DNA of 64,000 nucleotides from an uncultured Alphaproteobacteria bacterium (GTDB taxonomy: Bacteria > Pseudomonadota > Alphaproteobacteria > RF32 > CAG-239). Shown here piece by piece: positions 12,389 through 37,961 of this stretch. The notes beneath the pieces were generated by a model. That model was not told the origin of the DNA. It did no database searches and was given only the letters and a program-made list of their open reading frames with translations. The DNA is taken from the NCBI GenBank assembly GCA_944392185.1, contig CALXVW010000051.1, positions 610 through 64,609 on the forward strand, in the 5' to 3' direction. How positions within the stretch are numbered: the first letter of the stretch is position 1; every line of letters starts with the position of its first letter. A program made the position numbers and the translations under genes.

Positions 12389-12490
12389 CGTTTCAATCCC
12401 TGCATTGTTACTAATATTATGATACAGCTCTCATTTTTTTATGCAACACCCATAAAAAGGTTATCCCTTGCTTTCATCCAAATACATAAA

Positions 12491-12522
12491 AAAGAGGCAT
12501 TCTTACTACCTAGAATACCTCT
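12491..12522. terminator. Bidirectional rho-independent terminator between the giant virB2-fusion gene and virB3
   Basis: aaaaaagaggcattcttactacctagaatacctctttttt is an imperfect 10-12 bp stem flanked by A-run and T-run. It lies 40 bp downstream of the 1514-aa gene stop (minus strand). Confidence 0.55.
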
Positions 12523-12561
12523 TTTTTATGAATAATGCGTTAACTTTTACTTGTCAGAAGT

Positions 12562-17106: not shown

Positions 17107-17169
17107 GGCGTCCTCCTATGTTCTATCTTCTAGCCATTGTTGCTGACTATTTTATTGCCATTTCTTGTG

Positions 17170-18102
17170 CTACTTCAGAGTATCTGTTATCATGGTGGCG
17201 GTGAACTCATCGCAACCGGTTATCATGTTTATTATCTCTCCGGTGGTGGCTATTACAACCAAAGCTATGATTATGGCTCCCAGCCACTTCCAGTTTAAGT
17301 TTCCGAAAAATCCTCCTACGGCCACTCCTATAATACCAAATCCCGCAACAACATATATCAAATCTCTTAGACCATTAAATATTTTGCTTCCTGTATCAAT
17401 TAAACCGGAGAATATACCATAATCGCTGGAACAACCTGTTATCGCCGAATCCGGCTGATGATCATTACCTGAAGAAGTAATCTGCTCACAGACACCGTTT
17501 ACCTTCTGATATCCATCAGGACATTTTTCTTCTTGTTCACCTTGCTTGTTTTGTTCATCTTGTTCTTTTTCGGGAACATTTTTATCTTCTTCTGCTTTTT
17601 TAGCCTCTTCAGCTTTTCTCTCTTCTTCAGCTTTTTTTGCTTCTTCAGCTTTTTTTGCTTCTTCAGCTTTTTTTGCTTCTTCTGCTTTTCTTGCTTCTTC
17701 TGCTTGTCTAATCTCTTCTGCTCTTTTTGCTGCCGCCTCTTTTAGAGCTTCCTCTCTCTTTTTTTGAGAACTTTCAGAATAATAATCCAACTCATCAAAC
17801 TCTTCTTGGCTGGATTTCTGAATGTTTTCATCTTTTATCTTTTGCTTTAGATCTTTTGCATAACTTTTTACCGCTTCAATTCTTATGCCTTTCTCATTAA
17901 AACGATAAAATGTTCTGCCATTGTCAGACAGCCATTTAACCCCTTCATCCTCTACAATATAGCCGCCCTCTGATTTGGCAAAAACAACGCCCGGAACCAT
18001 CATGGTGCTGACAAATACTGCCAAAAGTATTATTTGGCATATCTTCTTCAAATTTATCATTGCACCCTCCCGCTTAATTTCTTTCTTGTCCTTTAATATC
18101 AA
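17170..18102 (-). CDS. 310-aa VirB2-domain protein with N-terminal coiled-coil extension carrying (EEAKKA)n repeats
   Basis: N-terminal hydrophobic segment ICQIILLAVFVSTMMVPGVVFA after the first 20 residues (probable signal peptide). KAEEAKKAEEAKKAEE repeats encoded by 18-bp DNA repeats. C-terminal VirB2-like hairpin with the NWKW loop motif. Confidence 0.6.
   Translation of the reverse strand: MILKDKKEIKREGAMINLKKICQIILLAVFVSTMMVPGVVFAKSEGGYIVEDEGVKWLSDNGRTFYRFNEKGIRIEAVKSYAKDLKQKIKDENIQKSSQEEFDELDYYSESSQKKREEALKEAAAKRAEEIRQAEEARKAEEAKKAEEAKKAEEAKKAEEERKAEEAKKAEEDKNVPEKEQDEQNKQGEQEEKCPDGYQKVNGVCEQITSSGNDHQPDSAITGCSSDYGIFSGLIDTGSKIFNGLRDLIYVVAGFGIIGVAVGGFFGNLNWKWLGAIIIALVVIATTGEIINMITGCDEFTATMITDTLK
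17586..17700. repeat. 18-bp coding tandem repeat (TTCTTCAGCTTTTTTTGC, 3 perfect copies plus degenerate copies) in the 310-aa VirB2-domain gene
   Basis: Directly visible. Encodes the EEAKKA heptad-like repeat. The poly-T tract inside each unit is a potential slippage site. Confidence 0.7.
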
Positions 18103-18237
18103 CCAGCCAGACTGATTGATGTTAAAAGAAAGGGGGATAGGCTAAGCGGTTTCCCGTTTTTCCAAGACCCCCTTTGCCCTCTTCCTTGTTTGGATCGGGC
18201 TGCAAATCGCAGCCCGAAACCAAAACGAAGGAGAAGA

Positions 18238-18579
18238 TTAGTTGGTAGCATTATCAAATGAGTCTTGGAAACCAGACATATTTTCACCGGTTGCGTAGTT
18301 TACAATTGAACCAGCCGCTGCCAAGATAGCAAGACCTACAGCCAACGAAGCAAACCACTTCCAGTTGACCTTTCCAAAAACCGCACTAAAGGCCAAGCCA
18401 ACCAAACCAAAACCACCGACTACGAAAATAATCGTCTTAACGGAGGTAAATACGTTTAAGGCCTTTTGCTGTGATGTCTGCATTACACTGGTTTGTGCTG
18501 ACGCATCGCCGGCAAATGTCAACAGTGTAAAGACTGCCACCAAGCAAAATGTCCAAATGTTGTTTTTAATAAATTGCAT
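18238..18579 (-). CDS. virB2: VirB2/TrbC-family T-pilin (canonical size)
   Basis: 113 aa. Signal peptide ending AGDASA-Q, then two hydrophobic helices separated by a GKVNWKW loop (VirB2/TrbC pilin topology). First gene of the operon. Followed by a 9-bp-stem hairpin at 18195-18217. Confidence 0.7.
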   Translation of the reverse strand: MQFIKNNIWTFCLVAVFTLLTFAGDASAQTSVMQTSQQKALNVFTSVKTIIFVVGGFGLVGLAFSAVFGKVNWKWFASLAVGLAILAAAGSIVNYATGENMSGFQDSFDNATN

Positions 18580-18832
18580 TGTCTTTCTCCTTCATGATAT
18601 TTTTAGCAAAACTCTTTATACTCTTTTAGAATAACTGATTTTTGCTTTTTTTTCTAGCAAAATTGCTTATACCAAAAAATGGTTAACATACTGTTTACAC
18701 TTGCAAATTTTTGCTGTAACAAAAAATTCACAGTCCTTAAGAAGAAGTAAACGCCCTAAAATCAAGATGATAGTTTTGAGAATCGGATAATATATTTTTT
18801 ATAAAAATCCACAAATTTGTGCATATTTTTTA

Positions 18833-18853
18833 GCGACTCTTGCCAAGAGTCGC
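18833..18853. promoter_or_regulatory. Perfect 10-bp inverted repeat (GCGACTCTTG c CAAGAGTCGC) in the divergent T4SS/pilus promoter region; candidate operator
   Basis: Directly visible palindrome about 37 bp upstream of the ATG at 18890. The surrounding 280-bp AT-rich intergenic region separates divergent operons and also has a repeated TAGCAAAA motif. Confidence 0.4.
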
Positions 18854-18889
18854 ATTTTGATTTATCAAGTCTTTAGAGGGGTTTATTTT

Positions 18890-20578
18890 ATGCCAAAAAC
18901 AGGTTTAAAAACTTTTGTTTACAGCTTTTCCGTATCCTTGTTCGCTATTTTTGCCGCTAACGGGGTATATTGGCATGACCGCCCTTCTAAAACTTCTGAT
19001 CTTAAAATTTCCAGCAAAAATATCACGCTTTTCTTAAAAGATGCGGCAAACAACCCCTCTCATAATGTCGCACCCGTAAAGAAAATCGCACTCAGTGTAC
19101 TGCCTGAACTAAAACACGGCAGCCCTTCTGCCGTTCCTGAAGATGAAATTATTATGGCTGATGACTTTGATCTGCCGGAAATTCCGCTGGAGCTTTCACT
19201 CCCCTCTTTAGAATCTCCTTTGCAAGAAAAAAAAGATGTCAAACTTGCTGAAAATGCTGCCCCTAAACCTACATTAATAAGACAGGAAACTCAGGAGCCG
19301 CCACAGCCGGATAAAATCGTTATTCCTCTTGAGGCTCCTCAATCCAAAGGTCTTGTCCGCCCCAAAAAAGCCGAAGAATTTTCTGCTCCGGAATCTTTGC
19401 TCATAAGCGAGCACCCCTCTAAAGAAAAGCAAAAATTTCCGAATCTTTTGTTGGCTACGAATGAGGCCTTTCAAAATGAAACACCGTCTGATACCTTTGC
19501 TGCTGCCTTAAAAGATGAAGATGCCGACCTTTTGCTTCCTCTCGAAAAGAGCGGCGACAATAAACCATCGTCAAAAAATATTATCAAAGTGGCCGCAGAC
19601 AATGCCGTAAATCAAGTCGCTCTGGCAGATAAATCCATCCCTGTTCATAGTATGGAGAAAAATATATCCTCAAACGATCTTTCATTCTCAAAAGCTTCTT
19701 CCCCCTCGTGGGAAAGTATGGCTGACAGCAAAACAACAGATTCCCCTTGGCTTGTTGCAAAAGCTGACGGCGCTCTAAAAAACCAAAAAATTTCAGAAGA
19801 AGCATTCTACCAACAAGATGCCGCAAACATTAAAGGCGCTCTTAGCCCCAATACCCCCTCCGGCAATGGGGTTAAGGTTGCGTCAGAAACCGTAAAAAAT
19901 CTTCTTATTCCCATTCCGGAAGATATTTTAAATGATGAGAACCTAACTCCTCAACTATCTTACACCCCAAAAGAAACAAGCGGAAAAGAAGATGCCCCTA
20001 AAGATACAACCGCCGATGCTTCTTCTTTATCATCACCAACTCCGACAACGCCTGCAGCCTCATCGACAGAGACTAAAACTACCTCCGACGAGCAAAAAAA
20101 CAAATTGCTTGCATCTCTTGATGCTATTTTTAGTGCAAGTTCAATCAAAAATAAAACCCCTCCAAAAGAAGAAAAAAAGAATCTTCTCAGCAGTGTACGA
20201 AAAAAAATACAAAAACGCAGCAGTGTCGGCAAAATTATGCCTACCGAGATGAGGCTTTCTTTTCAACCAAACCGCGCCGAAATATCCGGACAAACTTTGC
20301 GCTGGATACAGGCCTTTGCCACCAAAGCGGCTGAAAATAACAATATGACCATTGAAATAAGAATTGATGGCACCAGCGCCATGGATCTTCAACAAAAAAG
20401 ACTTAATCTCTTACATAATATATTGACCGATAAAGGTGTCGAATACAGCAAAATAAATACTGTATTCACTCAACGAGAACCAAACTCGTTTATTATTAAA
20501 ACCATTACCCACAATAACCAGAAAGGAGCCAACGGAAATTTAAATAAAGCGTCTAACGGATATTACATCCAATGGTAA
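18890..20578 (+). CDS. 562-aa membrane-anchored/secreted protein with Pro/Ser/Glu-rich linker and conserved C-terminal globular domain; first gene of pilus operon
   Basis: The ATG at 18890 follows an AGAGGGG RBS (the ORF track starts at an upstream TTG). N-terminus MPKTGLKTFVYSFSVSLFAIFAANG is a signal/anchor. Long low-complexity middle. The C-terminal about 110 aa is globular (possibly a peptidoglycan-binding-like fold, uncertain). Confidence 0.45.
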   Translation: MPKTGLKTFVYSFSVSLFAIFAANGVYWHDRPSKTSDLKISSKNITLFLKDAANNPSHNVAPVKKIALSVLPELKHGSPSAVPEDEIIMADDFDLPEIPLELSLPSLESPLQEKKDVKLAENAAPKPTLIRQETQEPPQPDKIVIPLEAPQSKGLVRPKKAEEFSAPESLLISEHPSKEKQKFPNLLLATNEAFQNETPSDTFAAALKDEDADLLLPLEKSGDNKPSSKNIIKVAADNAVNQVALADKSIPVHSMEKNISSNDLSFSKASSPSWESMADSKTTDSPWLVAKADGALKNQKISEEAFYQQDAANIKGALSPNTPSGNGVKVASETVKNLLIPIPEDILNDENLTPQLSYTPKETSGKEDAPKDTTADASSLSSPTPTTPAASSTETKTTSDEQKNKLLASLDAIFSASSIKNKTPPKEEKKNLLSSVRKKIQKRSSVGKIMPTEMRLSFQPNRAEISGQTLRWIQAFATKAAENNNMTIEIRIDGTSAMDLQQKRLNLLHNILTDKGVEYSKINTVFTQREPNSFIIKTITHNNQKGANGNLNKASNGYYIQW

Positions 20579-20635
20579 TAAGTCTTGAGAGGCGCTTGAT
20601 TATTTATTTTTCAGTATGTATGATAGGAAAAAAAT

Positions 20636-21376
20636 ATGACAAATTCTAATCCGAGGATAGCAAAAATGAACCAAACTTTACGGCACGGCGCGTCTGCGCT
20701 AATGATCTTTCTTATAACAGGGTGCAGCCATTGGGATCTGTTTGGCGCCGGAAACACTTATGTCGAAGATACACCGACAGCCGTAAGCTCCTCTGCCACA
20801 CAAATGCCCGCATCTGCGGCTCCTGTTATGACTGTGGAAACTCAAACGGAGGCTCTTATTGTTCCTCCTGAACAGAATAATGATAGTGATTTTATTAATT
20901 ATCGACAATCTGCGGCAGATTATCGTGAGTTTGGTGAGCGCGCTCCAAGAGATCAAGATATCGTTACTTCCGGAGCCGGAAGTAATATGGCGGCGTCTAT
21001 CCCTCCAACCATTGAGGAAGAAGTAACAGACTACGAAGAAGAAATTAATGCGGCGATTGAAGAAAATTCAGACAGCAGCCAGTCGCAACAATCTGTTGGC
21101 GAAGACCCCGTAGAAGATTGGCTGGCTGAAGAAGGTAGTACGCTTAAAGGCCTGTTGACCGATTGGAGTGAAAGAGCCGGCTGGAGATTGATTTGGAACA
21201 GTAACCGCAATTACACTTTAGCCGCAGGCGCAATGTTTAGAGGGCGTTTTGCCGATGTGAGCTCTGCTTTAATCAGAACCTTTGCCAGAGCAAAACCTGC
21301 TCCGGTGGCAACTTTTTATAAAGGAAACAGAGTCTTAGTTGTTGAGACCATGGAGGATGAGAATGCATATAACTAA
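20636..21376 (+). CDS. pilL: PilL-like lipoprotein with TcpQ-type C-terminal domain (type IVb pilus biogenesis)
   Basis: Lipobox LITGC. C-terminal motif WSERAGWRLIWNSNRNYTLAAGAMFRGRF...ATFYKGNRVLVV resembles the TcpQ/PilL domain of R64 and PAPI-1 thin-pilus systems. Position immediately before the secretin gene, as in pilL-pilN. Confidence 0.55.
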   Translation: MTNSNPRIAKMNQTLRHGASALMIFLITGCSHWDLFGAGNTYVEDTPTAVSSSATQMPASAAPVMTVETQTEALIVPPEQNNDSDFINYRQSAADYREFGERAPRDQDIVTSGAGSNMAASIPPTIEEEVTDYEEEINAAIEENSDSSQSQQSVGEDPVEDWLAEEGSTLKGLLTDWSERAGWRLIWNSNRNYTLAAGAMFRGRFADVSSALIRTFARAKPAPVATFYKGNRVLVVETMEDENAYN

Positions 21377-22964
21377 TTGGAAAAAACTTGGATTTGGAAT
21401 GTTGGCGGCAGCATTCGCAGCCTCTTGTTCTATATCTACAAATTTAGATGCAACAATTGATCGTGAAGTAGAAGCCGCGACAAAACTTAAAGAGGCCGCT
21501 AAGGCACCTACTCCTTTGGCAAATCAAGACCTGATTAAGGTTAAGGATGAAATTTGGCTTGGTAATACGAGCGAAATTGAATATGAAGGAGAACCCTTGC
21601 CCGCTTATCTTGAGGGAAAAAACGGTATTACTTTGGTCAGCAATCGGCCGATTACTTTGTTTGAAATCGGAGATATGATCAACAAAACAACGTCTTTGGG
21701 CGTTCGTTATGCGCCACAGCTTGAGACAGATGTTAAATCTAAGGGCGCAGCAAACAAACCAACGGCAGAAGCTATTAATACCGACTGGGCAGAGCCTGAT
21801 AAAATGCTGGTTTCTTACCAGGGGCCTTTAAGCGGGCTGCTGGATGAAATTGCCTCTCGTTTCGGAATTTGGTGGAGATATGAAAAGAAAGAAATTCATT
21901 TCTATAAATTTATTACCAAGACTTTTGTCGTCTATAGCTTACCGACAAAACCGAATTTGACGGTTACTGTCGGCGGAAGCCAAAGCGGAAGCGGCGGAAG
22001 CTCTTCTGTGAACTTGAATAACTCCGCAGAAGTTGAGCTTTGGGGCAATTTTGAGAAGAGCATTACCTCTATGATCAGTGATGGTGCTAAACTTACAATG
22101 TCTCCGGCAGACGGGACCATAACTTTAACGGCAACACCTAATGATATCAAAAAAGTCGCAAAATACATCAATGAACAAAATGCTCGCTTGTCAAGACAGG
22201 TTGCTATTAGTGTTAAAGTGTTACAGGTAACCATCTCAGATACCGATAATTACGGCCTAGACTTGAGCGCTACTTTTAAAGACGGGGTTACTTCTATAGG
22301 TGTAACTGGATCAACAAGCATCAGTTCTGCTGAATCTGTCGGCAATACCTTGAGCTGGGGAATCCTAAACAAGCCCTGGACTGCAGATGCGGCGGTTAAA
22401 GCCTTGTCTCAACGGAATAATACCAGCTTGGTGACCAGCGGTACTGTTACCACGCTTAATAATAAACCCGCTCCAATTCAGGTTACTCAAAAGCAAAACT
22501 ACATTGCTGAAATGACAAAAACAAATAGCGGAACAACAGGTGACAACTACGATATTTCCGTTACGACGGAAGAAGTTGAAACCGGATTTACTCTCGATGT
22601 TTTGCCAAGAATCCTTGAACACGGCAGAATGCTCGTGATGTTCAACATGACACTGTCTGACCTTGTTTCTCTTGATAAGGTTGAGTTTGGCGCCGAAGAT
22701 GAAAACCAATATATTCAGAACCCGCATATTGAATCTAGAGCCTTTACTCAAGAGGTGGCTATGACTTCAGGAGAATCTCTTATCTTGACCGGATATGAAA
22801 GAGTTAATAATTCTACAACCAAAGAAGGAACAGGATCTGCTGAAAATTCTTTACTCGGCGGCGTTGCTAACGCTGAAAAAGAACGCAGTGTTTTAGTTAT
22901 CATTCTCACTCCGGTAGTGCTAGAAACACCTTTATCCCCGGAATCTAGAATGTCTATGAATTAA
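21363..22964 (+). CDS. pilN: PilN-like lipoprotein secretin (type IVb pilus outer-membrane channel)
   Basis: Start MHITNWKKLGFGMLAAAFAASC carries lipobox AASC. The C-terminal secretin domain (VKVLQVTISDTDNYGLDLS...ERSVLVIILTPVVLE) is the conserved secretin C-terminal pattern. Overlaps the pilL stop. Confidence 0.7.
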   Translation: MHITNWKKLGFGMLAAAFAASCSISTNLDATIDREVEAATKLKEAAKAPTPLANQDLIKVKDEIWLGNTSEIEYEGEPLPAYLEGKNGITLVSNRPITLFEIGDMINKTTSLGVRYAPQLETDVKSKGAANKPTAEAINTDWAEPDKMLVSYQGPLSGLLDEIASRFGIWWRYEKKEIHFYKFITKTFVVYSLPTKPNLTVTVGGSQSGSGGSSSVNLNNSAEVELWGNFEKSITSMISDGAKLTMSPADGTITLTATPNDIKKVAKYINEQNARLSRQVAISVKVLQVTISDTDNYGLDLSATFKDGVTSIGVTGSTSISSAESVGNTLSWGILNKPWTADAAVKALSQRNNTSLVTSGTVTTLNNKPAPIQVTQKQNYIAEMTKTNSGTTGDNYDISVTTEEVETGFTLDVLPRILEHGRMLVMFNMTLSDLVSLDKVEFGAEDENQYIQNPHIESRAFTQEVAMTSGESLILTGYERVNNSTTKEGTGSAENSLLGGVANAEKERSVLVIILTPVVLETPLSPESRMSMN

Positions 22965-22983
22965 TTCACTAAGGAGAAAACTG

Positions 22984-24261
22984 GTGCTGGAAGAAGCCAA
23001 ACTGCTTGATGATGATATTGAAAAAACCTCAGCAAAAAGAACCTGGGGAACATCAATTACGGTTGATGGCATGACTTATGCCACCAGTTTATTCTGGCAA
23101 CCTCTACAAAATACCAGCGATCCGTTCCAAGAAGTGGAAGAAGCTTCCGCCGGCGTATTGGAAGGCGCTGATTTATTCTGTATTAAAGGCGGAAAAGCTC
23201 CTCAATTTGGTATTTGCGTTTCTCATGAAGGATATAAAAACGGAGAAACCGTCGGTGCCGTGGCCCTGGCAACTGCTTTGTCCGATGTGGGATCTTATGT
23301 CGCTGTATTCAAAACCCAAGAAGGATGGTGGTACGTTTGTATTCGAAACGATATTATCCTTTCTGACGGCGACATGCTTTTCTTGAGTGAAGACGAAGCC
23401 AAAGAGCAGTTTATGTCTATGCTCGCCGTGCCTGATTGGGGGAAGAAAATTGCCCCTAAAGAATGGGCTATTGAAGAAACGGAGGAATTGGACCTTGGCG
23501 ATTTGCTTATGCGAGGGGCTAAATCTAAACTCCAAAAGATTAAAGCGTTGCGCGGCACGAAGCTTTTCATGGTTATTGCTATTTCTGCTGTGGTTGGAAT
23601 TTGGTTGTTATCCAGCCTAATTGACACTATCTTCTTAACCCCTACAGTCAGGCCCGTTGTTGTTCCCGTTAAGCCTAAAGCTATTCAAAAGGCGGAACCG
23701 ATCGTCGAAATTAAACCATGGGAAAAGGTTCCTAATGCAAAAGAAGTTATGAAAAATTGTTATGACGGAATTGTGGCATTAAATAAAATCCTGCCCCCAG
23801 GATGGGATATCGGAACAATTTCCTGTTCCAACGGAAGTGCTGCAACTACTTGGAAAAGAAGTGTGGGACAAATTGCTTGGGCTCAAAAAGCTCTTGATGA
23901 TTCAGGGCTGCACTTTTCCGGAAGAAGCTTTTCTTCTAAAGGAGATGACCTTTCGGCTACTTTATCTTTACCAAAGGCTGAAGAGCTTCTGAACCCGCCT
24001 CAAAAAAATCTACTTGATTTGCAAGATGACATCAATAACACCTTTCAATCAATCGGGGTTAATATTGCTTTGTCTATCGGAGCGGCAAAATCTTCTACCG
24101 GAGTAAATTATCGAACCCTTCAGTTTTCTTTGAATTCTGAATATAATCCATTGACTTGGATCAATTTGTTAACAAAATATTCAGGACTTGATATTAAACT
24201 AATTTCATATTCGCCACAAACTAAGCTATGGCATTACGAGGGAGCTATCTATGTTTTATAA
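22984..24261 (+). CDS. PilO-like type IVb pilus assembly protein
   Basis: 425 aa. GTG start 8 nt after an AAGGAG RBS. One internal TM segment (LFMVIAISAVVGIWLLSSLI). Position between the secretin and PilP/PilQ matches pilO of R64-type clusters. No direct motif support. Confidence 0.35.
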   Translation: MLEEAKLLDDDIEKTSAKRTWGTSITVDGMTYATSLFWQPLQNTSDPFQEVEEASAGVLEGADLFCIKGGKAPQFGICVSHEGYKNGETVGAVALATALSDVGSYVAVFKTQEGWWYVCIRNDIILSDGDMLFLSEDEAKEQFMSMLAVPDWGKKIAPKEWAIEETEELDLGDLLMRGAKSKLQKIKALRGTKLFMVIAISAVVGIWLLSSLIDTIFLTPTVRPVVVPVKPKAIQKAEPIVEIKPWEKVPNAKEVMKNCYDGIVALNKILPPGWDIGTISCSNGSAATTWKRSVGQIAWAQKALDDSGLHFSGRSFSSKGDDLSATLSLPKAEELLNPPQKNLLDLQDDINNTFQSIGVNIALSIGAAKSSTGVNYRTLQFSLNSEYNPLTWINLLTKYSGLDIKLISYSPQTKLWHYEGAIYVL

Positions 24262-25576
24262 ATTAAAAAATATTTTAGGTGTGTCTGCGTTGACTCTGGT
24301 TGTTGCCGCCAGTTATAATCCTTTATATGCTCAGGGTGTGGTTACCCTTTCTGAAGAAGCAATGTTTGATGAGGAGAATAATAATACTTCTCCCAGTGTC
24401 CCGAATGATGCTCCTTTGTTTGGAAACGCGGCTCCTTCCGTTTCAGAATCTTCCATAACAACAGAAGCTCCCGCTTCTGCCGATAACACTCAAACACCTC
24501 CTGTTGAAGACATATCCTTGCCGGTTATGCCTGCGGAAATGCTTAATCAGCCAGGGGCAGGGGTCGGTTTGTTAGGAACAAATGATGCGGAGGAAATAGA
24601 TGATTCTGTTTTTGATCAAATGTCTGATATTGAAAAACAGACTGCCTTGCTTAATCTTGAATTGAGACGTGAAAAAGTAAAGAATGAAATCGAAGCTATA
24701 AAAAACCAAAGAAAACAAGCTATTCTTCAAGAAAAAGAAAAAGCCGAAGAAAAAGAAAGACGTAAAGTTGAATGGGAAAAAGAACAAGAACAAAAGGTTT
24801 TGCAGGAGCAGCAAAAACTTAGAGAGCTTGATATTCAGTTTGAAAAAGAAAGACAAGAACGCCTGTTAAATGCTTATAAAAATGATATGCTGGCCGCAAA
24901 TCAGGAGTGGATTGCTCATGAGGGCTCACTTTATAAACAGATAGAAAATTTAAAAGAGGAAAATAAATCTCTTCTAAATGATATGAAAACAAAATTAAAA
25001 GGCATTAAAACAAATGTTGAGCAGGCTTCTCAACAATCTTCAAAAGCCATCGCTGATTATCAAAAGGAAATTGACAATCTTCAAACACAGATTTCTGTAT
25101 TAAAAGCTCGTATAGATGCTCAAGAACGTGAAATCGAAAAAAGAAATCCTTTTGAAGAGCAAGCTCTCCAAGATGCCCAAAAGGCTGCAGAGCCAGAAGC
25201 CACTATTGAAGAAGCAATTATTCCCGAATTAAAATTGGCGAATATGTACGCGGTTATGGAAATCAGAGGCCAGGGCGGAGAGTTGATTGCTAAATTGATC
25301 AATCAAGACGGAACTCCTTTTTATGTTAAGGAAGGAACTGCTCTCCAAAGCGGACATACCGTAAGTGAAATTACATCAACTTATGTTTGCGCCGAAAAAG
25401 ACGGTATTAAAGATTATCTCTATTTTGCCGCCGGAGGCATATTGCCGTTAGAACAACCAAAATCGAACATCAAGCCTTCTTTGCCGGAAGGCACTGTTGA
25501 GCAACAAGAGGTTAAACCGGCTTTTGCAACCAGTGTTGGTGTTCCGGGGCTTGGAAAGTCTATGATTGCCAGGTAA
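24251..25576 (+). CDS. PilP-like periplasmic coiled-coil pilus assembly protein
   Basis: Signal peptide MFYKLKNILGVSALTLVVAASYNPLYAQG. Central Glu/Lys/Gln coiled-coil. Overlaps the upstream gene stop. Synteny only. Confidence 0.35.
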   Translation: MFYKLKNILGVSALTLVVAASYNPLYAQGVVTLSEEAMFDEENNNTSPSVPNDAPLFGNAAPSVSESSITTEAPASADNTQTPPVEDISLPVMPAEMLNQPGAGVGLLGTNDAEEIDDSVFDQMSDIEKQTALLNLELRREKVKNEIEAIKNQRKQAILQEKEKAEEKERRKVEWEKEQEQKVLQEQQKLRELDIQFEKERQERLLNAYKNDMLAANQEWIAHEGSLYKQIENLKEENKSLLNDMKTKLKGIKTNVEQASQQSSKAIADYQKEIDNLQTQISVLKARIDAQEREIEKRNPFEEQALQDAQKAAEPEATIEEAIIPELKLANMYAVMEIRGQGGELIAKLINQDGTPFYVKEGTALQSGHTVSEITSTYVCAEKDGIKDYLYFAAGGILPLEQPKSNIKPSLPEGTVEQQEVKPAFATSVGVPGLGKSMIAR

Positions 25577-25582
25577 TGTTCA

Positions 25583-27271
25583 ATGGCTGACGAGAATGAG
25601 CAAAAACTGAACGATGAAAAAGATGAAGCTTCAGCTCCCGAGAATGATGTTGAAGCTTTAAGCCCATCTGAAGAACAACTAAAGGCGGATTCTCAAAAAA
25701 AATCTTCTATCTCTGAAACATATTTTTCTAACGGCAACAGATTATTAACTTTGCCCGGCTCATCTTTAGTTATTAATGATGATACCCGTAGGCTGTTGGC
25801 TCTCTTTTCCGATGGTCGGTTTTTGGTTGTTGAAACCCATAAATTTGATGGACGAGTCCTGAGTTTTGAGGTTTTGGCAAGAAAAAAGAAGTTAAATATC
25901 TTAAAACCGACTTATGTTTCTCAAAATGAAATAAACGCAATTTACAGTATCGGTGAACGTGCTCAGGCCGCTGTCGATGTGAAGGAAGACAGCGAGCTTG
26001 ATCAGCTGCAGATGCAGAAAGACTTTGTCAATGTTATTGCTCGAGCTGCTGCTCAAAAAGTCTCCGATGTTCACGTTATTGTTGCTGATAGCACTCAGAT
26101 TATGTTCCGTATCAATGGTATGATGACAACTGAGATGGAATATAACAAAGACTGGGGAGAATCCTTTGTTCGCGCTGCTTTTGCCTCTGCCGATGTTTCT
26201 GATTCAAACTATGCTCAAAACGAATTCCAGGGTGCACAAAAGCTTGGTTCCACCCCTTTGCGCGGCTCCAAAGGTAAATTAATGTTGCCACACAATGTCT
26301 TGGCTATCCGCTTACAATTTAACCCTATTGCTTTTGGATCCCAATATCTGGTTATGCGCTTGCTTTATGCCGATGATAACCCCGATGGATCCGGTGATTT
26401 AGCAAGCCTTGGGTTTGGCGAATATGAAGAAAATTTGTTTTATCGTCTTCGTGCAGTACCTGTCGGACTTAGCATCATCGCCGGACCTACGGGATCTGGT
26501 AAATCTACTACCCTTCAACGTAATATGATCAGATTACTGCAAGAAAAAAATTATGAAATTAACCTAATTACCGTGGAAGACCCGCCAGAATATCCTATTC
26601 CGGGGGCAAGACAAATGCCCGTGACTAACGCCAACACCGAAGAAGAAAAAGATGAGCAGTTTACAAAAGCTTTGTCTGCGGCGTTGCGTTCTGACCCGGA
26701 TGTTATGATGGTTGGTGAGGTGCGCTCTCTTTCCGCTGCCCAATTAACTTTTAAAGGCGCTCTTTCCGGGCACGGAGTCTGGACAACCCTACACGCAAAC
26801 TCCGCTCCTGCCATTATTACGCGCTTGAGAGATATGGGCGTCGAAACATTTAAACTTCTTGATCCAGAATTGATGAAAGGGCTTATCTCTCAACGTTTGT
26901 TTAGAAAACTTTGTCCTCATTGCCGTATTTCGGTTAAAGAAAAATTAAATGAACTCTCGGTTCAGCGTCTTAAAGTGGCATTGGGGGATTTTGGTATTGA
27001 AAATACTTTTGTTCGTGGACAGGGATGTAAATATTGTAACAATACCGGAATTAAAGGAAGAATGAGTGTGCCGGAAATTATCTTGCCGGATGCTACGTTC
27101 CTTGAACTAATGATTAAAGGTGAAACCAGAAAAGCGATTGATTATTGGACCAGTGATTTGAACGGAAGAACACTGAAGGAAGCCGCTATCGAAAGAATGC
27201 TTAAAGGATTAATCGACCTTGACGAGGTTGAACGTTGGTGCGGACTTATGGATCAACGTCCTGTATACTAG
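25583..27271 (+). CDS. pilQ: PilQ/GspE-family pilus assembly ATPase
   Basis: Walker A AGPTGSGKSTT. Asp/His boxes (MVGEVRS, VWTTLHAN). Tetracysteine CPHC...CKYC, typical of GspE/PilB ATPases. Confidence 0.85.
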   Translation: MADENEQKLNDEKDEASAPENDVEALSPSEEQLKADSQKKSSISETYFSNGNRLLTLPGSSLVINDDTRRLLALFSDGRFLVVETHKFDGRVLSFEVLARKKKLNILKPTYVSQNEINAIYSIGERAQAAVDVKEDSELDQLQMQKDFVNVIARAAAQKVSDVHVIVADSTQIMFRINGMMTTEMEYNKDWGESFVRAAFASADVSDSNYAQNEFQGAQKLGSTPLRGSKGKLMLPHNVLAIRLQFNPIAFGSQYLVMRLLYADDNPDGSGDLASLGFGEYEENLFYRLRAVPVGLSIIAGPTGSGKSTTLQRNMIRLLQEKNYEINLITVEDPPEYPIPGARQMPVTNANTEEEKDEQFTKALSAALRSDPDVMMVGEVRSLSAAQLTFKGALSGHGVWTTLHANSAPAIITRLRDMGVETFKLLDPELMKGLISQRLFRKLCPHCRISVKEKLNELSVQRLKVALGDFGIENTFVRGQGCKYCNNTGIKGRMSVPEIILPDATFLELMIKGETRKAIDYWTSDLNGRTLKEAAIERMLKGLIDLDEVERWCGLMDQRPVY

Positions 27272-27282
27272 GGGAAATAATA

Positions 27283-28413
27283 ATGGCAGAAGATATTAAA
27301 AAGAAATCAAAATCTCTTCAAAAAGCTATGATGAAACTCAATATCATTGAGGAGTATTATGCCAAAATGATTATTCAATTTTCCAATAAAACAAGATTGA
27401 AACTTTATCGGAAAATTGCATCCTTGATGAAAAACCGCTTCTCGTTGATGGATGCCTTGGATATGCTCCATGATACGGCCAGCAACGGCGGAAGAAACCC
27501 CGGAGAGCCATTGGCCATCGCTATCGCTGCTTGGGGTAGAGCCTTAAATAACGGTAAAACTTTTTCTGATGCTCTAAAAGGATGGGCTCCGGCCAGAGAA
27601 AGGCTGATGCTCTCGGTTGGTGATGTTTCTGACCTCGAAAGCGCCCTTTTAAACTTAATCAAAGTAACTGAAGGTTCTACAAAAATGATCCGACCTATTG
27701 TCGGTGCTATTGCTTACCCAAGTTTCTTGGTTATGATGTCGGTTTTGATCATTTATGCTATCGGCGTTTATATGGTGCCGCCAATGATTGATGCCGCGCC
27801 TAATGTTGTTTGGAGAGGTATGGCCAGAGATTTGGTTAATCTTTCTGACTGGATTAAAGATAACTGGGCTATTGCTTTTGCTTCTCTGCCTGCTGTTATG
27901 GCTGTTATCTATTTTACTATCGGTATTTGGACCGGAAAAATCAGAGCTTATTTTGATGCGGTTCCCCCTTGGTCTTTATATAAAGTATTTACCGGTATCA
28001 GCTGGCTTTTGGCTCTTTCTGCTTTGGTAAAAGGCGGAACCCCTGTGTCAACGGCGATGCGTGCTCTTCGCAGAGATTCCAGCAGATATCTCAGAGAAAG
28101 AATTGATAAGACTTTGGTCTTTATTAATAATGGTGACAACTTAGGTCAAGCCCTTGACAAAACAGGATTAAATTTTCCAGATGTGGAAATTATCGGAGAT
28201 CTTAAAATCTATTCCGAGCTTGATAATTTTGAAGAAGCTCTTGATAATTTGGCTAACGATTGGCTGGAAGAATCTGTTTATATGATTGAAGAAAAGGCCG
28301 GCATCTTAAATATGGTTGCCTTACTCTCAATCGGCGCTGTTATTGCCTGGGCCGTTATGGGAACTTTTGAGATGCAAGATCAAATCACTAGCAGTATGGG
28401 AAGCGGAGCCTAA
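27283..28413 (+). CDS. pilR: PilR/GspF/PilC-family inner-membrane platform protein
   Basis: About 377 aa from the ATG after the pilQ stop. Polytopic (three hydrophobic stretches). Follows the GspE ATPase as in type IV pilus and T2SS operons. Confidence 0.6.
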   Translation: MAEDIKKKSKSLQKAMMKLNIIEEYYAKMIIQFSNKTRLKLYRKIASLMKNRFSLMDALDMLHDTASNGGRNPGEPLAIAIAAWGRALNNGKTFSDALKGWAPARERLMLSVGDVSDLESALLNLIKVTEGSTKMIRPIVGAIAYPSFLVMMSVLIIYAIGVYMVPPMIDAAPNVVWRGMARDLVNLSDWIKDNWAIAFASLPAVMAVIYFTIGIWTGKIRAYFDAVPPWSLYKVFTGISWLLALSALVKGGTPVSTAMRALRRDSSRYLRERIDKTLVFINNGDNLGQALDKTGLNFPDVEIIGDLKIYSELDNFEEALDNLANDWLEESVYMIEEKAGILNMVALLSIGAVIAWAVMGTFEMQDQITSSMGSGA

Positions 28414-28415
28414 TA

Positions 28416-29011
28416 TGACTACAAAAGAAAAACTTTTCACTATAAAAGATAATCTTATTCAACTTATTTTCTTGCATCATAAAATATTGATAAGTATCTT
28501 GGGCTTTTTCTTGCTTTGTTGGCTCTTTATTGCTTTCTTTTTTGCTCAAGAAAATTCCGGAACAACTGATGCTGCCCTAGAACTTGAACAATTGACCAGC
28601 AATATTCGCCGCTATTATCAAAACAGGCCTGATTATTGGGGGTTAAGTACTCAAATGGTGCTTGACAAAAACATTTACCCTCATAAAATGCTAAAAAATA
28701 ATCGTTTGATTGGGTATTTTGGTAATCCGATTTTGATTGGAAACGGTCCTGATGCGGATGTCTTGATGCCAGGAGCTCGTAATTTTGATATTATTTATAA
28801 AGAACTGAATGAAAAACAATGTATTGGATTGGCCGCTTTCAAATTCTCTCAAAAGTTTTGGTTGGGTGTTACTGGAATTTCCATAATTAATGATAAATAT
28901 AATCAATTCTTTACGTGGGATGACAAAGAAAATGGCTTGCCAATACAAAAGAATACGGCTAAAAATATTTGTAAAGGAAATAATACGATAATTTGGCATT
29001 ATGAACAATAA
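28416..29011 (+). CDS. Membrane-anchored periplasmic protein of pilus operon (minor-pilin or assembly factor-like; unknown)
   Basis: The ATG 3 nt after the pilR stop gives MTTKEKLFTIKDNLIQLIFLHHKILISILGFFLLCWLFIAFFFAQ: a single N-terminal TM helix followed by a soluble domain. Lacks a clear prepilin G/E motif. Confidence 0.35.
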
Positions 29012-29126
29012 AGTTATGACTTTGGTTATATCCTTTCGTACTTTTTATGACTAAGGATAAGATTGTTCATAATTTATTAATTTGTTATAGTTAAACTATA
29101 AACAAAGTGAATCGAGGAGAGATACT

Positions 29127-29720
29127 ATGAATACTTTATATAAAAATGAGCAATCCGGGCGTTCAATGGTGGAAATGCTTGGTGTGCTCGCAATTATCGG
29201 GGTGCTTTCGATTGGTGGTATCTCCGGTTATTCTAAAGCTATGGCTAAATATCGTGTCAATAAAACCTTAGACCAAATTTCTATGCTGGTGATGAATATT
29301 CGTTCTTTGTTTTCTGCCAGTGTCGATTATGCTGATCTGAGTACTGATATCGCTATCCAAATGGGTATTATTCCTGGAGATATGAGAGATCCTGATAATA
29401 CGGCTGCTATTGTTAATGCTTATCAGGGATCTGTGTTCGTCGGAAATCCCGATAGTGATACTCGGCAATTTTATGTTCAGTATACTGGATTAACTCAAGA
29501 AGCTTGTGTTGCTTTGGCTACTGCCGACTGGGGTTCTCAGGCAGGTTCCGGATTGGTTTCTCTTGCTATCGGACCGGCTACCAATAAGAAAGATGAGGTG
29601 GAGTCATTTGCCGAAACAATTACCGTAGACCAAATGCCTGTTGGGCTCGCTACCGCGGCTTCTGCTTGCTCAAGCACCGTGGATTCCATCGGTAACGCAA
29701 TCCAATGGACTTACTATTAA
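29127..29720 (+). CDS. pilS: Type IVb prepilin (PilS-like major pilin)
   Basis: Leader MNTLYKNEQSG, then RSMVEMLGVLAIIGVLSIGGISGY. Glu at +5 after the predicted G|R cleavage and the hydrophobic alpha1 helix match the class III signal of type IV pilins. Followed by a strong terminator. Confidence 0.7.
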   Translation: MNTLYKNEQSGRSMVEMLGVLAIIGVLSIGGISGYSKAMAKYRVNKTLDQISMLVMNIRSLFSASVDYADLSTDIAIQMGIIPGDMRDPDNTAAIVNAYQGSVFVGNPDSDTRQFYVQYTGLTQEACVALATADWGSQAGSGLVSLAIGPATNKKDEVESFAETITVDQMPVGLATAASACSSTVDSIGNAIQWTYY

Positions 29721-29740
29721 TAAAAAAAACACTCTCTTTT

Positions 29741-29768
29741 GGACCCCGCCTCTAAGGCGGGGTTTTTG
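29741..29768 (+). terminator. Rho-independent terminator after pilin gene
   Basis: ccccgcc tctaa ggcgggg stem-loop followed by ttttt. Confidence 0.7.
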
Positions 29769-29853
29769 TTCTATATCCTCTTGCAGATTTGCACTTTATT
29801 AATATATACTTGATAAAATACTGAGAGATTGGTTTTTATATAAGAGGTTTTCC

Positions 29854-30819
29854 ATGACAACCATTACCGAAACAACTTTTTCTGATATATATATCACTCC
29901 TAAAAAAGAAGCTTTTATTCCTAACAAACAAACCATTAATGCCTTAACGCGCTTTAATCCTAATGATTTTGATAAATTTTATCATCTGCTGGAAACTTCT
30001 TGGGATGGGAAAAACCCAAGCTATTCCGTTATATACGACGGAATTTATTACCGCGTTGAGAGAACTGTTGCTTTGGATGGTATTCAATATTGCGCAAGAA
30101 GAATGCCCGCAAAAGTTCCGGACTTTACCTCTTTAGGGTATCCTAAGCAATTAGAAAAATATCTTTTGGCATTAAAACATGCTTCAGGCTTGATTCTTTG
30201 GAGCGGACCAACCGGATCGGGAAAAACAACCTCTATTTCAAGCCTGCTTAAAGACTATCTTTCTACAGAGGGCGGATTTGCTTATACTATTGAAGATCCT
30301 AATGAGCAACCTTTAGACGGTATCTATACTACGCCAAATGGCGGTTTGGGGCTTTGCAAACAAACCCAACCTGTGGGAGGAAATTGGGGCGATTCCTTAA
30401 AATCTGCTTTACGTTCAAAACCTCGTTATATTATGGTCGGGGAGATCAGAACTCCCGATACAGCTAGCGAGGTTTTACGTGCAGCAACTTCCGGCCACCT
30501 TGTACTTTCTACTATTCACGCCAACAATGTGACCGATGCCATAACATCTACAGTCAAATATGCCGCAGCCGGGGGGATGAGCGAGGATTTGGCTTATGAT
30601 CTTTTTTCTCGCGGAATGCTTGCTGTTTTGCACCAAACGTTGGTCGGAACATCTGTTAAAAGAGCTTCTGTATCATTCCTTTTTGCCAACCCTGATACAA
30701 CAAAAGGAGACCAAGTACGCGGCATTATTAAAGGTGGAAAATTAAACTTAGGAACATCTATTGAGACTCAGATGACACGTATGGCCAGAGGGCTGCCCAT
30801 ATTTGTAGATATTTCCTAA
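29854..30819 (+). CDS. PilT-like secretion/retraction ATPase (PilT/VirB11 superfamily, no GspE N-domain)
   Basis: 321 aa. Walker A GPTGSGKTT, Asp box IEDPNE, Walker B MVGEIRTPD, His box HLVLSTIHANN. Core motif order matches PilT/PilU. Confidence 0.65.
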   Translation: MTTITETTFSDIYITPKKEAFIPNKQTINALTRFNPNDFDKFYHLLETSWDGKNPSYSVIYDGIYYRVERTVALDGIQYCARRMPAKVPDFTSLGYPKQLEKYLLALKHASGLILWSGPTGSGKTTSISSLLKDYLSTEGGFAYTIEDPNEQPLDGIYTTPNGGLGLCKQTQPVGGNWGDSLKSALRSKPRYIMVGEIRTPDTASEVLRAATSGHLVLSTIHANNVTDAITSTVKYAAAGGMSEDLAYDLFSRGMLAVLHQTLVGTSVKRASVSFLFANPDTTKGDQVRGIIKGGKLNLGTSIETQMTRMARGLPIFVDIS

Positions 30820-31996: not shown

Positions 31997-32680
31997 ATGG
32001 TTGAAAATAATATTGAAAATGAGCTTATTCCTTATGTCGAATTTGCTGATAATGCCAATGAGAGAACTCCTTGTGTTTTGGTATTGGATTGCTCCGGATC
32101 CATGCGCGGAGAACCTATCAAACAACTCAACGCAGGCCTTAAAGCTTTGGAAAAAGAGCCCAAAGACGATATTGATGCCAGCTCTCGCGTCCAACTCTTA
32201 ATCATCAAAGCTTTTGGCAAAGATGAAGCCGTTATATCTTCTGATTGGATTGATGCCATGAATTTTGCGGCTCCGACTATGGAAGCCGGAGGTCTCACCC
32301 CGCTTGGAAAGGCTATGGAATTGGCCTTAAAAAAAATTGAAGAGCAAAAATGTCTCTATGATAGCTGCGGAATTACATCTAAACGCCCATGGATATTCCT
32401 TATCAGTGATGGTGAACCAACTGATTATGATTGGGAAATCATTGCTAAAAAGTGCCGTATAGCTCAAGAAAATAAAAAAGTGGTTATTCATGCCGTGGGA
32501 ACTCAAGGTGCTAACTTGGAAAAATTGGCTAAATTTTCTACCATTTCACCAAAGCGTTTGACCGGATTGAAATTCACTGAGTTTTTCTTGTGGCTCAGCC
32601 GCAGCGTTTCCTGTATTTCCAGAGCTGCTCCTAATGCTCCTGATTTGCTTGAAGATACCGGGGAATGGGATGAAGAATAA
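31997..32680 (+). CDS. TerY-like von Willebrand factor A domain protein
   Basis: VLVLDCSGSMRG MIDAS motif (DxSxS). Size about 227 aa. First member of the vWA-PP2C-kinase triad. Confidence 0.7.
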   Translation: MVENNIENELIPYVEFADNANERTPCVLVLDCSGSMRGEPIKQLNAGLKALEKEPKDDIDASSRVQLLIIKAFGKDEAVISSDWIDAMNFAAPTMEAGGLTPLGKAMELALKKIEEQKCLYDSCGITSKRPWIFLISDGEPTDYDWEIIAKKCRIAQENKKVVIHAVGTQGANLEKLAKFSTISPKRLTGLKFTEFFLWLSRSVSCISRAAPNAPDLLEDTGEWDEE

Positions 32681-33413: not shown

Positions 33414-33415
33414 AA

Positions 33416-36304: not shown

Positions 36305-36322
36305 ACTTTCTTGCTTTAACAA

Positions 36323-36350
36323 AAAACCCGCCATTTGGCGGGCTTTTTAT
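36323..36350. terminator. Bidirectional terminator between convergent genes
   Basis: aaaacccgcc atttg gcgggcttttt hairpin between the + gene ending at 36304 and gpsA ending at 36350. Confidence 0.6.
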
Positions 36351-37321: not shown

Positions 37322-37426
37322 ATTTAATCCTTTAAAGTATTAGCAATACTTTATCAGTAAAACATAACATCATATTTTGCAACCATGTTGTTGCAAAAGT
37401 GCACGGGATTTTGGCAAAGAGAAGTA

Positions 37427-37786: not shown

Positions 37787-37961
37787 TTGCAGACATCCAT
37801 AGTTTATGAAAGTTTATCTAGCACATAACGTGCCTTTTTGCAAGAGTTTTTATACATTCTTAATCATACCCTTTTTGGTTTAAAACTTGGTTAATTAAAT
37901 AGACAAGCCTCCAAAACAGACTTATCATTAGTTATCATTTTGTATGAAAGGAACTTTTATA

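Follow-up and report, generated by a model that had tools for sequence, protein, structure and literature searches.

The stretch of DNA analyzed here, referred to as the window, comprises 64,000 nucleotides from an uncultured Alphaproteobacteria bacterium of the RF32/CAG-239 clade. At 18890-30819 on the + strand it carries a pilus (pil) cluster of ten co-directional genes with short or overlapping junctions, as could be seen from the listing of open reading frames (ORFs) and their translations. The series consists of an OmpA-like anchor, PilL/TcpQ, PilN, PilO2, a long PilP-like protein, PilQ, PilR, a non-cleavable pilin paralog, a PilS/bundlin-type prepilin and a 321-residue ATPase. Eight of the ten genes could be assigned by Pfam and NCBIfam, and the family E-values of 1e-10 to 1e-65 along the colinear run are far beyond chance. 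Judged by these families, the interval encodes a type IVb PilL-N-O-P-Q-R-S pilus machine. The eight genes listed in the initial annotation were all recovered on the + strand and in the order given there. However, the TcpQ-type lipoprotein is not the opening gene, since it is preceded by a previously unannotated OmpA-like membrane protein, and a pilin-like gene between PilR and PilS had been overlooked. The features of the interval are:

18890-20578 (ATG at 18890; the ORF opens with TTG at 18857), + strand: first gene of the pil operon, 562 residues; N-terminal transmembrane segment, low-complexity linker and C-terminal OmpA-like domain
20636-21376, + strand: PilL/BfpG/TcpQ-family lipoprotein; Pfam TcpQ 59 bits (cut-off 27) at residues 161-237; lipobox LITGC
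21339-22964 (probable start ~21357), + strand: PilN/BfpB-family lipoprotein secretin; Pfam Secretin 55 bits; lipobox AASC
22984-24261, + strand: PilO2/BfpC-family assembly protein; Pfam PAP_PilO (PF06864) 41.5 bits over the full length (cut-off 26.7)
24251-25576, + strand: enlarged PilP-like protein, 441 residues; TIGR03021 PilP 33 bits (cut-off 34.65) at residues 271-379
25583-27271, + strand: PilQ/BfpD-family extension ATPase, 562 residues; Pfam T2SSE 220 bits
27235-28413 (probable start ATG 27283), + strand: PilR/BfpE-family platform protein; Pfam T2SSF 84 bits in two stretches
~28415-29011 (the ORF opens at 28316), + strand: pilin paralog without prepilin cleavage site, 198 residues from its ATG; Pfam Bundlin 25.4 bits (cut-off 22.3)
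29127-29720, + strand: major prepilin of the PilS/bundlin type; Pfam PilS 59 bits, Bundlin 49 bits
29741-29775 (hairpin 29741-29765), + strand: terminator-like hairpin and T-run; 11-bp stem with 7 G-C pairs, followed by TTTTTGTTC
29854-30819, + strand: BfpF/PilT2-family small ATPase of the T2SSE family, 321 residues; assigned with NCBIfam, BLASTP and an AlphaFold2 (AF2) model searched with Foldseek

The proteins were compared by BLASTP with a reference set of five clusters, in which the IncI plasmid pC60-108 (L172) served as the R64-type reference. The PilL/TcpQ lipoprotein is likely the partner of the secretin, and its C-terminal domain is 41% identical to the TcpQ protein of Bosea, 38% to BfpG of the bundle-forming pilus (BFP), 38% to PAPI-type PilL2 and 29% to R64 PilL. 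The secretin scored 277 bits with the PilN model TIGR02520 (cut-off 287.65), 112 with MshL, 39 with GspD and 33 with the type IVa PilQ model. It is 31% identical to BfpB over 554 residues, that is, over the full length, and 32% identical to R64 PilN over 386 residues. A profile made from the PilO orthologs matched Bosea PilO2 (E 7e-46), BfpC (1e-22), PAPI-type PilO2 (2e-9) and R64 PilO (2e-5). The PilP-like protein has a signal peptide, a long charged and repeat-rich stretch that, judged by eye, looks like a coiled coil, and a C-terminal PilP domain; its ortholog profile matched the R64-type PilP with an E-value of 1.4e-5. The large ATPase PilQ, which carries a CPHC...CKYC cysteine motif that the small ATPase lacks, is 39% identical to the Bosea ATPase, 36.5% to BfpD, 33% to PAPI-type PilQ2 and 30% to R64 PilQ, and for PilR the corresponding values were 34% (Bosea), 32.5% (BfpE), 28% (PilR2) and 24% (R64 PilR). 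For nearly every protein the same order of distance was thus obtained: the Bosea plasmid cluster and BFP or BFP-like clusters first, then the PAPI-type and finally the R64-type.

Some of these proteins are drawn from superfamilies that also build type II secretion systems (T2SS) and Tad/Flp pili, namely the ATPase, the platform protein and the secretin, and the GspE and GspF models indeed scored 225 and 52 bits. These scores lie far under the respective cut-offs of 630 and 424, and for the secretin the 277 bits with PilN stand against 39 with GspD. Moreover, TcpQ, PAP_PilO, PilP and PilS/Bundlin are families specific to type IVb pili, while GspC, GspL, GspM, a set of pseudopilins, TadB/C, RcpA and Flp were absent and the TadA-type model reached 43 bits. 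It is therefore extremely unlikely that the genes form a T2SS or a Tad/Flp pilus, and the Pfam and NCBIfam searches with PilL, PilN, PilQ, PilR, PilS and PilT profiles support the type IVb assignment that had been made from the sequence.

The first gene of the operon, with AGAGGGG preceding ATG 18890, matched no Pfam or NCBIfam family significantly. BLASTP and ortholog-profile comparisons of this protein (orf573) with the BFP, PAPI-type, Bosea and R64 proteins gave no counterpart. It heads the pil operon in all related loci with enough flank. Conservation is confined to the N-terminal transmembrane segment and the last ~95 residues, and D46 and R57 of the C-terminal domain are invariant. When a profile of this domain was compared with the PDB, Pal/P6 was the sole match, in register and with the invariant Asp and Arg aligned, at a non-significant E-value of 1.6. 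A single-sequence AF2 model had a mean predicted local distance difference test (pLDDT) score of 66.5, with 70-86 in the core, and a beta-alpha-beta-alpha-beta-beta topology. Foldseek searches with this model returned among the top ~40 hits exclusively OmpA_C, Pal or MotB peptidoglycan-binding domains (best E-value 1e-5, TM-score 0.5-0.65). With moderate confidence, the model suggests that the protein is a peptidoglycan-tethering component.

Two pilin-like genes follow PilR. The second encodes the prepilin proper, with the signal MNTLYKNEQSG|RSMVEMLGVLAIIG. Cleavage is predicted at G|RSMVE, after the leader MNTLYKNEQSG, and E is thus at +5 behind a G cleavage site, as initially described. The leader of 11 residues is at the short end for type IVb prepilins. 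The mature protein comprises 186 residues with cysteines at 116 and 170. It thereby has the features of a type IVb prepilin: G at -1, E at +5, a first residue other than Phe, a mature length of ~180-200 residues and a C-terminal cysteine pair. It is 25.5% identical to BfpA over 184 residues (BLASTP). In an alignment of 58 prepilins the leader mostly had 11 residues and mature residues 1-30 were conserved at 91-98%, whereas column identity in the C-terminal half was 8-40%; the two cysteines flank the variable end.

The first of the two genes encodes a pilin paralog with one transmembrane segment and a pilin-like globular domain. A profile of 48 orthologs matched BfpA (8e-11), an E. coli BFP-like pilin (4e-7) and R64 PilS (2e-4), and the 37 orthologs inspected for it showed no conserved G-x4-E site. 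Exactly one copy was found after PilR in every locus examined. PilM had been considered as an identity for this protein and could be ruled out, as the profile matches pilins and not PilM. By its sequence, the paralog would be membrane-anchored and not processable in the usual way, and it is perhaps a base or priming subunit. In related loci, the interval between PilR and the small ATPase contains one such paralog and zero to four tandem prepilin genes. Three or four tandem prepilin genes were found in L020, L021, L052, L059 and L073, with identical N-terminal halves and divergent C-terminal halves. Because the C-terminal halves of the prepilins are variable, variation resides in the major subunit and not in a PilV tip adhesin.

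For the small ATPase, each of the four ATPase boxes announced in the initial annotation could be read from the sequence: Walker A GPTGSGKT at residues 118-125, the Asp box AYTIEDPNE, Walker B PRYIMVGEIR and the His box GHLVLSTIHAN. All four are invariant across 16 homologs. The NCBIfam ranking was pilT_fam with 110 bits (cut-off 319), TraJ with 73, DotB with 67 and VirB11 with 46, each under its own cut-off. Full-length BLASTP matches were obtained with the Bosea ATPase (34.6%, E 2e-52, 168 bits), an E. coli BFP-like ATPase (160 bits), BfpF (33.5%, 7e-46, 150 bits, residues 1-313) and PAPI-type PilT2 (31.4%, 1e-37, 128 bits). In tblastn searches against plasmids, the protein aligned over 98% of its length with BfpF, named there 'bundle-forming pilus retraction ATPase' (33.5%, E 5e-38), and in like manner with ATPases of 318-344 residues in type IVb operons of Bosea (34.8%), of E. 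coli BFP-like plasmids and of a P. aeruginosa megaplasmid. In the annotated regions, the genes of these plasmid-borne ATPases follow that of either the platform protein or the pilin. Whereas BfpF/PilT2-type proteins gave full-length alignments of 128-168 bits, the best matches in a PDB sequence search, PilT proteins, covered only the core (residues 77-235) with 83-90 bits; DotB came next.

An AF2 model based on 16 homologs had a pLDDT of 81 and a two-domain PilT-like fold. This fold and all nucleotide-binding boxes are shared with PilT and PilU of type IVa pili and with DotB/TraJ. Foldseek matched the model to PilT, PilT2, PilT4 and PilU over 317-338 alignment columns, closely followed by the PilF/PilB assembly ATPases and DotB. 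The conserved C-terminal helix VRGIIKGGK aligns with ISSKIRSGK of BfpF; its presumable correspondence to the AIRNLIRE region of PilT serves as a lead only. With 321 residues (~320-345 expected for a retraction-type ATPase), without the long N-terminal domains of extension ATPases and with full-length similarity to BfpF, the protein is assigned by homology to the BfpF/PilT2 family and is a predicted retraction motor. BfpF is the experimentally established retraction ATPase of the BFP in enteropathogenic E. coli (EPEC) (PMC12531336), and PilT2 of PAPI-1 is an ATPase without the N-terminal 110 residues (PMC3984277). The gene had been regarded as an additional component; it is nothing unusual, being standard both in PAPI-1-type clusters (PilT2) and in the BFP (BfpF). 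The earlier description as PilT-like, which a VirB11 assignment would have refuted, agrees with the 110 bits for pilT_fam vs 46 for VirB11. VirB11 of a neighboring secretion system (see below) was also considered and ruled out, since the corresponding operon of related genomes ends with its own full-length VirB11. That protein scored 144 bits with TIGR02788 over profile positions 1-306 of 308, and its 34% identity to the small ATPase extends over 125 residues of the nucleotide-binding core only.

The gene content was then compared with named systems. The PAPI-1 order is pilL2N2O2P2Q2R2S2T2V2M2, and insertion in any of these ten genes greatly reduces transfer (PMC5297154). The cluster of the P. 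aeruginosa megaplasmid of the MPF_G type (L088) follows this order and encodes TcpQ, PilN, PilO2, PilP, an ATPase, T2SSF, a pilin, an ATPase of 318 residues, PilV and PilM. The cluster described here has the same core gene order, from the TcpQ lipoprotein through to the small ATPase after the pilin gene, with 31% full-length identity to the 318-residue ATPase. It also resembles PAPI-1 in the lack of a prepilin peptidase gene within the cluster (PMC3984277). It differs from the PAPI-1 type in that PilV adhesin and PilM were not found, in the additional OmpA-like first gene and non-cleavable pilin paralog, in a PilP of 441 residues compared with ~150-180, in the up to four tandem pilin copies of its relatives, and in being a chromosomal locus next to a VirB/Cag-like secretion system and not an integrative and conjugative element (ICE) or plasmid with an MPF_G system. 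The best BLASTP match for PilL, PilN, PilO, PilQ, PilR and the small ATPase was in each case the cluster on pBSY19_1 of Bosea sp. RAC05 (25-41%).

Homologs of BfpG, BfpB, BfpC, BfpD, BfpE, BfpF and BfpA of the EPEC BFP are all present (20-38%), and the pilin is closest to bundlin. For the BFP, retraction of the type IVb pilus by an ATPase dedicated to this task has been established experimentally (PMC12531336). In the BFP, however, the pilin gene comes first (bfpA-G-B-C-U-D-E-F-P-H-I-J-K-L) and not near the end. The BfpP peptidase, BfpH transglycosylase, minor pilins BfpI/J/K, BfpL and BfpU were not detected here by tblastn, and the BFP is located on a virulence plasmid and not paired with a type IV secretion system (T4SS) operon. 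R64/IncI1 clusters share homologs of PilL, N, O, P, Q, R and S in the same relative order, and the R64 thin pilus has a functional partnership with a T4SS. In the IncI reference, unlike here, the gene after pilS encodes a lytic transglycosylase, also called PilT, followed by the PilU peptidase and PilV. PilM, the PilT transglycosylase, PilU and PilV with its shufflon and rci, which are all present in the IncI reference, were not detected in the window. Of the proposed R64/PAPI-1 type, the PAPI-1 part is thus upheld, but the R64 part is not, as a transglycosylase occupies the PilT position in R64-type clusters and the R64 proteins are the most distant reference. By gene content, PAPI-1/BFP-like without nearby PilV, PilM or peptidase is the fitting label, and 'R64-type' the weakest one.

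The missing components were searched for in the window and in 165 related loci. No prepilin peptidase was found by tblastn with BfpP, R64 PilU and an E. coli A24 protein, and Pfam scans of the window ORFs of at least 150 residues showed no A24 prepilin peptidase. With three PilV and two PilM proteins no tblastn match with an E-value of 1e-3 or better was obtained in the window or the related loci, and three transglycosylases, BfpI/J/K/L/U and PilI likewise gave nothing there. The earlier statement that prepilin peptidase and PilV are not in the cluster is therefore upheld at the sensitivity of tblastn. By analogy with PAPI-1, the prepilin peptidase must presumably be encoded elsewhere.

The distribution of the locus was studied with the small ATPase as query. 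Thousands of homologs exist; the best 120 are 69-95% identical, and the few named ones come from metagenome-assembled genomes (MAGs) of Alphaproteobacteria. A scan of one genome per GTDB species gave 289 relatives, of which the best 80 were used for locus counts. Each of these 80 is a MAG from the gut, the hosts being humans (including Hadza), deer, buffalo, rabbit and chicken, and they are titled Alphaproteobacteria, Azospirillaceae, 'Azospirillum sp.' or 'Candidatus Scatocola'. The clade also includes a T4SS protein whose name refers to 'Azospirillum sp. CAG:239'. The genes pilN to pilR lay directly upstream of the ATPase on the same strand in 38 of the 80 loci (tblastn), and in nine more the pil cluster was within 10 kb in another arrangement. 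In three loci only pilin genes were present, at a contig edge, and in eight the flank was too short to judge, so that pil genes lie no more than 10 kb from the ATPase in at least 47 of 72 informative loci. In the remaining 22, with flanks of at least 6 kb and up to 10 kb on each side, no pil gene was found near the ATPase; three of these (L062, L077 and L085) showed PilQ cross-matches to the ATPase itself and were counted here. There the ATPase has housekeeping or flagellin genes as neighbors; examples are cmk-rpsA-ATPase in L001, L012 and L016 and a flagellin neighborhood in L026 and L030. In most loci the ATPase is followed, as in the window, by phosphoribosyltransferase, redoxin, VWA-PP2C-kinase and NMO-family genes.

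These data raise the question of whether the ATPase is a stand-alone member of the PilT family with another job, on a different pilus or DotB-like on the T4SS, that is merely a neighbor of the pil genes in some genomes. It looks like its own transcription unit behind the terminator-like hairpin, and in the 22 of 80 loci with pil-free flanks it stays beside the phosphoribosyltransferase, redoxin and VWA genes. It is intact and highly conserved in the lineages with pil-free flanks, with P0021 keeping all invariant motifs, the pil cluster of L123 is without it, and DotB-type ATPases were nearly equal in the fold search. On the other hand, its best full-length matches are ATPases within type IVb operons (BfpF, PAPI-type PilT2, Bosea and E. 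coli BFP-like), and in the 38 syntenic loci its gene follows that of the pilin, which is where PilT2 is encoded. A role on the T4SS is opposed by the VirB11 already present there. In addition, the pil-T4SS block shifts relative to the ATPase in rearranged loci (L009, L011, L023, L057 and others) and in L123. Because of this movement, separation of ATPase and pil genes proves little, and as L009, L011 and L023 indicate, absence from a 10-kb flank is not absence from the genome. An independent function of the ATPase is therefore regarded as unlikely.

Two side observations concern the surroundings of the ATPase. In L026 and L030 (13-18 kb), where no pil genes are near it, three flagellin-like genes in tandem are found at a distance of a few kb. 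In L049, at ~11158, a VirB2-like ORF with 51% identity to VirB2 of the window is inserted between the genes for the small ATPase and the phosphoribosyltransferase, at a distance from any T4SS operon.

The pil operon is directly adjacent to a T4SS, as the initial annotation had noted, and is separated from it by a control region. The features upstream of the pil genes are:

1-18579, - strand: VirB-type T4SS operon, running off the start of the window
1-341, - strand: N-terminus of VirB8, 61% identical to a Pfam-VirB8 protein
between VirB4 and the VirB8 fragment, - strand: six T4SS-operon proteins without family match
9679-12108, - strand: VirB4; Pfam CagE_TrbE_VirB, TIGR00929 380 bits
12098-12388, - strand: ORF of 96 residues in the VirB3 position; no Pfam match, VirB3-like by position only
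between the VirB3-position ORF and the VirB2-like ORF, - strand: 1514-residue member of the T4SS operon
17170-18102, - strand: VirB2-like protein of 310 residues with a VirB2-like C-terminus
18238-18579, - strand: VirB2; Pfam TrbC/VirB2
18580..18889: divergent control region between virB2 (-) and the pil operon (+)
~18716-18735: motif CTGTAACAAAAAATTCACAG, conserved in an alignment of the intergenic regions from 14 related loci
18833-18853: hairpin GCGACTCTTGCCAAGAGTCGC, conserved in the same 14 aligned regions

VirB2 in two copies, a VirB4 and, at the window edge, VirB8 could thus be identified beside the pilus genes. In relatives (L170, L171, L173 and L174) the operon continues with VirB8, an ORF of 62 residues, a second VirB8, CagX/VirB9, a protein of ~1000-1200 residues, a VirB10 of 1570-1602 residues with TrbI and 'beta-flower' domains and a VirB11 of 322 residues, where it stops. 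The unrecognized T4SS proteins fall to 21-45% identity; VirB4 remains at 76-90%. A metagenome scan with VirB4 gave 80 loci with 65-95% identity. Thirty of these VirB4-centered loci extend at least 8 kb upstream, and in 28 of them virB2 is adjoined by the pil genes from the first one through PilL to PilN or further. This pairing persists down to 67% identity of VirB4 and 48% of PilN. The two operons are almost always in divergent orientation; L123 has them in tandem, with the pil cluster abutting virB2. Within the shared divergent region of 277 bp, CTGTGAATTTTTTGTTACAG (in virB2 orientation) and the GCGACTCTTGGCAAGAGTC hairpin adjoining the first pil gene are kept across relatives. By their conservation, both motifs are candidate operator or leader elements with a putative regulatory role. 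The tight co-inheritance and the shared control region suggest that pilus and T4SS work together.

It had been proposed that the pil cluster and the T4SS form a conjugative or host-interaction module, possibly within an ICE, and the conjugative form of this proposal, an ICE or a remnant of one in which the pilus stabilizes mating pairs for DNA transfer, was evaluated against the mobility data. It is favored by the direct adjacency of the T4SS, by the known use of type IVb pili as conjugation accessories (PMC10654706, PMC5297154) and by the location of the closest named homologs on Bosea pBSY19_1, which carries PilV and a topoisomerase III gene, and on the MPF_G megaplasmid of P. aeruginosa. 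However, the synteny of T4SS, pil and housekeeping genes is kept in many species with gradual divergence (PilQ 78-95%, VirB4 65-95%). In the 38 syntenic loci the median identities to the window were 85% for PilQ, 79% for PilR, 72% for the ATPase, 66% for PilN, 61% for PilO, 47% for the pilin, 46% for PilP, 44% for the first gene and 38% for the pilin paralog. The contigs of the relatives reach 300-700 kb, and the G+C content of the pil block (0.37-0.45) is like that of its flanks, with no anomaly. Because the divergence is graded within a fixed synteny, the contigs are large and the G+C content is flank-like, the pil locus is, by this evidence, chromosomal and vertically inherited and not part of a plasmid or ICE.

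In addition, no VirD4-type or relaxase family was found in the window ORFs of at least 150 residues, and none was recorded in the T4SS operons of the relatives, which end at VirB11; PilV and a shufflon are lacking as well. T4SSs without a coupling protein exist, such as Brucella VirB, Bordetella Ptl and Helicobacter ComB. The lack of a nearby VirD4 thus argues against self-transfer, not against function. The search for an integrase led to the downstream part of the window:

38640-38730: tRNA-Ser
38735-59890: low-GC island (0.27-0.35) of ~21 kb, inserted next to tRNA-Ser
39726-41375: large serine recombinase inside the island, the only recombinase in the window

This recombinase was considered as a mark of a pil-containing ICE and ruled out. 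It belongs to a separate island that lies ~8 kb downstream of the pil cluster, past conserved housekeeping genes, and that is absent from the two closest relatives (L006 and L007), in which the counterparts of 36000-38734 and 59891-61987 are contiguous. The ICE reading thus found no linked relaxase, VirD4 or integrase, and a conjugative module is considered improbable.

Taken together, the locus probably encodes a type IVb pilus machine that belongs to the PAPI-1/BFP lineage, is fixed in the chromosome and most likely serves as an accessory contact device of the T4SS; this role is proposed because pilus and T4SS are almost always divergently paired and share a conserved control region. By homology, the TcpQ-type lipoprotein and the PilN-type lipoprotein secretin make up the outer-membrane channel, PilO2, the long PilP-like protein and the PilR platform the inner-membrane assembly complex, and the PilS/bundlin-type prepilin the fiber subunit, with PilQ as extension ATPase. 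The inner-membrane protein with the OmpA-like domain may tether the machine to peptidoglycan. PilQ would polymerize the processed pilin through the secretin and, by homology to BfpF, the small ATPase would depolymerize it, which would result in a fiber that extends and retracts. Such a pilus could serve the neighboring T4SS by attaching to a target cell or surface and drawing it near, as the thin pili of IncI plasmids and PAPI-1 do in liquid matings. Both in liquid and in the gut, type IVb pili assist IncI2/IncI1 mating as accessory pili (PMC10654706). Because the pair is inherited vertically and neither a relaxase nor a coupling protein lies nearby, the cargo is more likely to be protein effectors, or the function some other one that depends on contact, than self-transfer of an element.

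Several observations weigh against this interpretation. Between the pilin gene and the small ATPase there is a strong terminator-like hairpin (29741-29765), pil genes are missing around the ATPase in the flanks of the 22 species loci mentioned above, and L123 has a pil cluster without such an ATPase. Sequence and fold separate PilT-like from DotB-like ATPases only uncleanly. In six loci (L024, L034, L043 and L048-L050) the interval from PilR to the ATPase lacks a cleavable pilin gene, and tip adhesin PilV, minor pilins and peptidase were not found by tblastn in the window and the 165 related loci. Moreover, retraction, target and cargo are all inferred.

A more far-reaching version, which is tentatively put forward and is rather doubtful, would regard the pilus and the giant T4SS as the halves of a single contact apparatus, domesticated and non-conjugative, that belongs to the core equipment of gut Alphaproteobacteria of the CAG-239/'Scatocola' type. 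In such an apparatus a retractile fiber, varied by tandem major-pilin paralogs and not by a PilV shufflon, would reel in a host or bacterial target, on which a VirB/Cag-like T4SS without coupling protein and with very fast-evolving outer components would act.

In its original form, a cluster of this type together with a PilT-like ATPase, the finding is nothing out of the ordinary among type IVb pili of the PAPI-1/BFP kind. What is new is a known core with two added components, the lack of PilV, PilM and peptidase in its vicinity, its chromosomal fixation, an atypical giant T4SS as neighbor and an unstudied gut lineage; a literature search on pili or T4SSs of the RF32/CAG-239 clade returned nothing relevant. 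Most of what is known about type IVb pili of the PilL-S kind concerns either conjugative plasmids and ICEs, which use them as accessory pili, or virulence pili encoded on plasmids, among them the BFP. Here such a pilus, with a retraction-type ATPase included, appears as a stable chromosomal feature of widespread uncultured gut Alphaproteobacteria of humans, ruminants and birds, nearly always paired with an unusually large T4SS without visible DNA-transfer genes. If both indeed cooperate, a commensal lineage that is functionally almost uncharted would have adopted conjugation-type hardware for contact with its host or with other bacteria. The variable pilins and the fast-evolving T4SS surface proteins are also concrete candidates for the attachment of these bacteria.

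Two further features were observed downstream of the pil cluster. At 31997-34867 the window encodes a triad of a VWA protein, a PP2C phosphatase and a Ser/Thr kinase, of which the VWA protein is 85-96% identical across species, above any pilus protein. The low-GC island, a defense island that also has phage-like genes, contains, apart from the recombinase, DUF2924, a ParB-methylase, a terminase-like protein, a DnaB-like helicase and a WYL regulator. Its cargo also includes a C5-methylase and an EcoO109I-like endonuclease, which form a type II restriction-modification pair, a GmrSD/HEC-05 protein and the Gabija defense system, with GajA and GajB identified at 526 and 643 bits, respectively.

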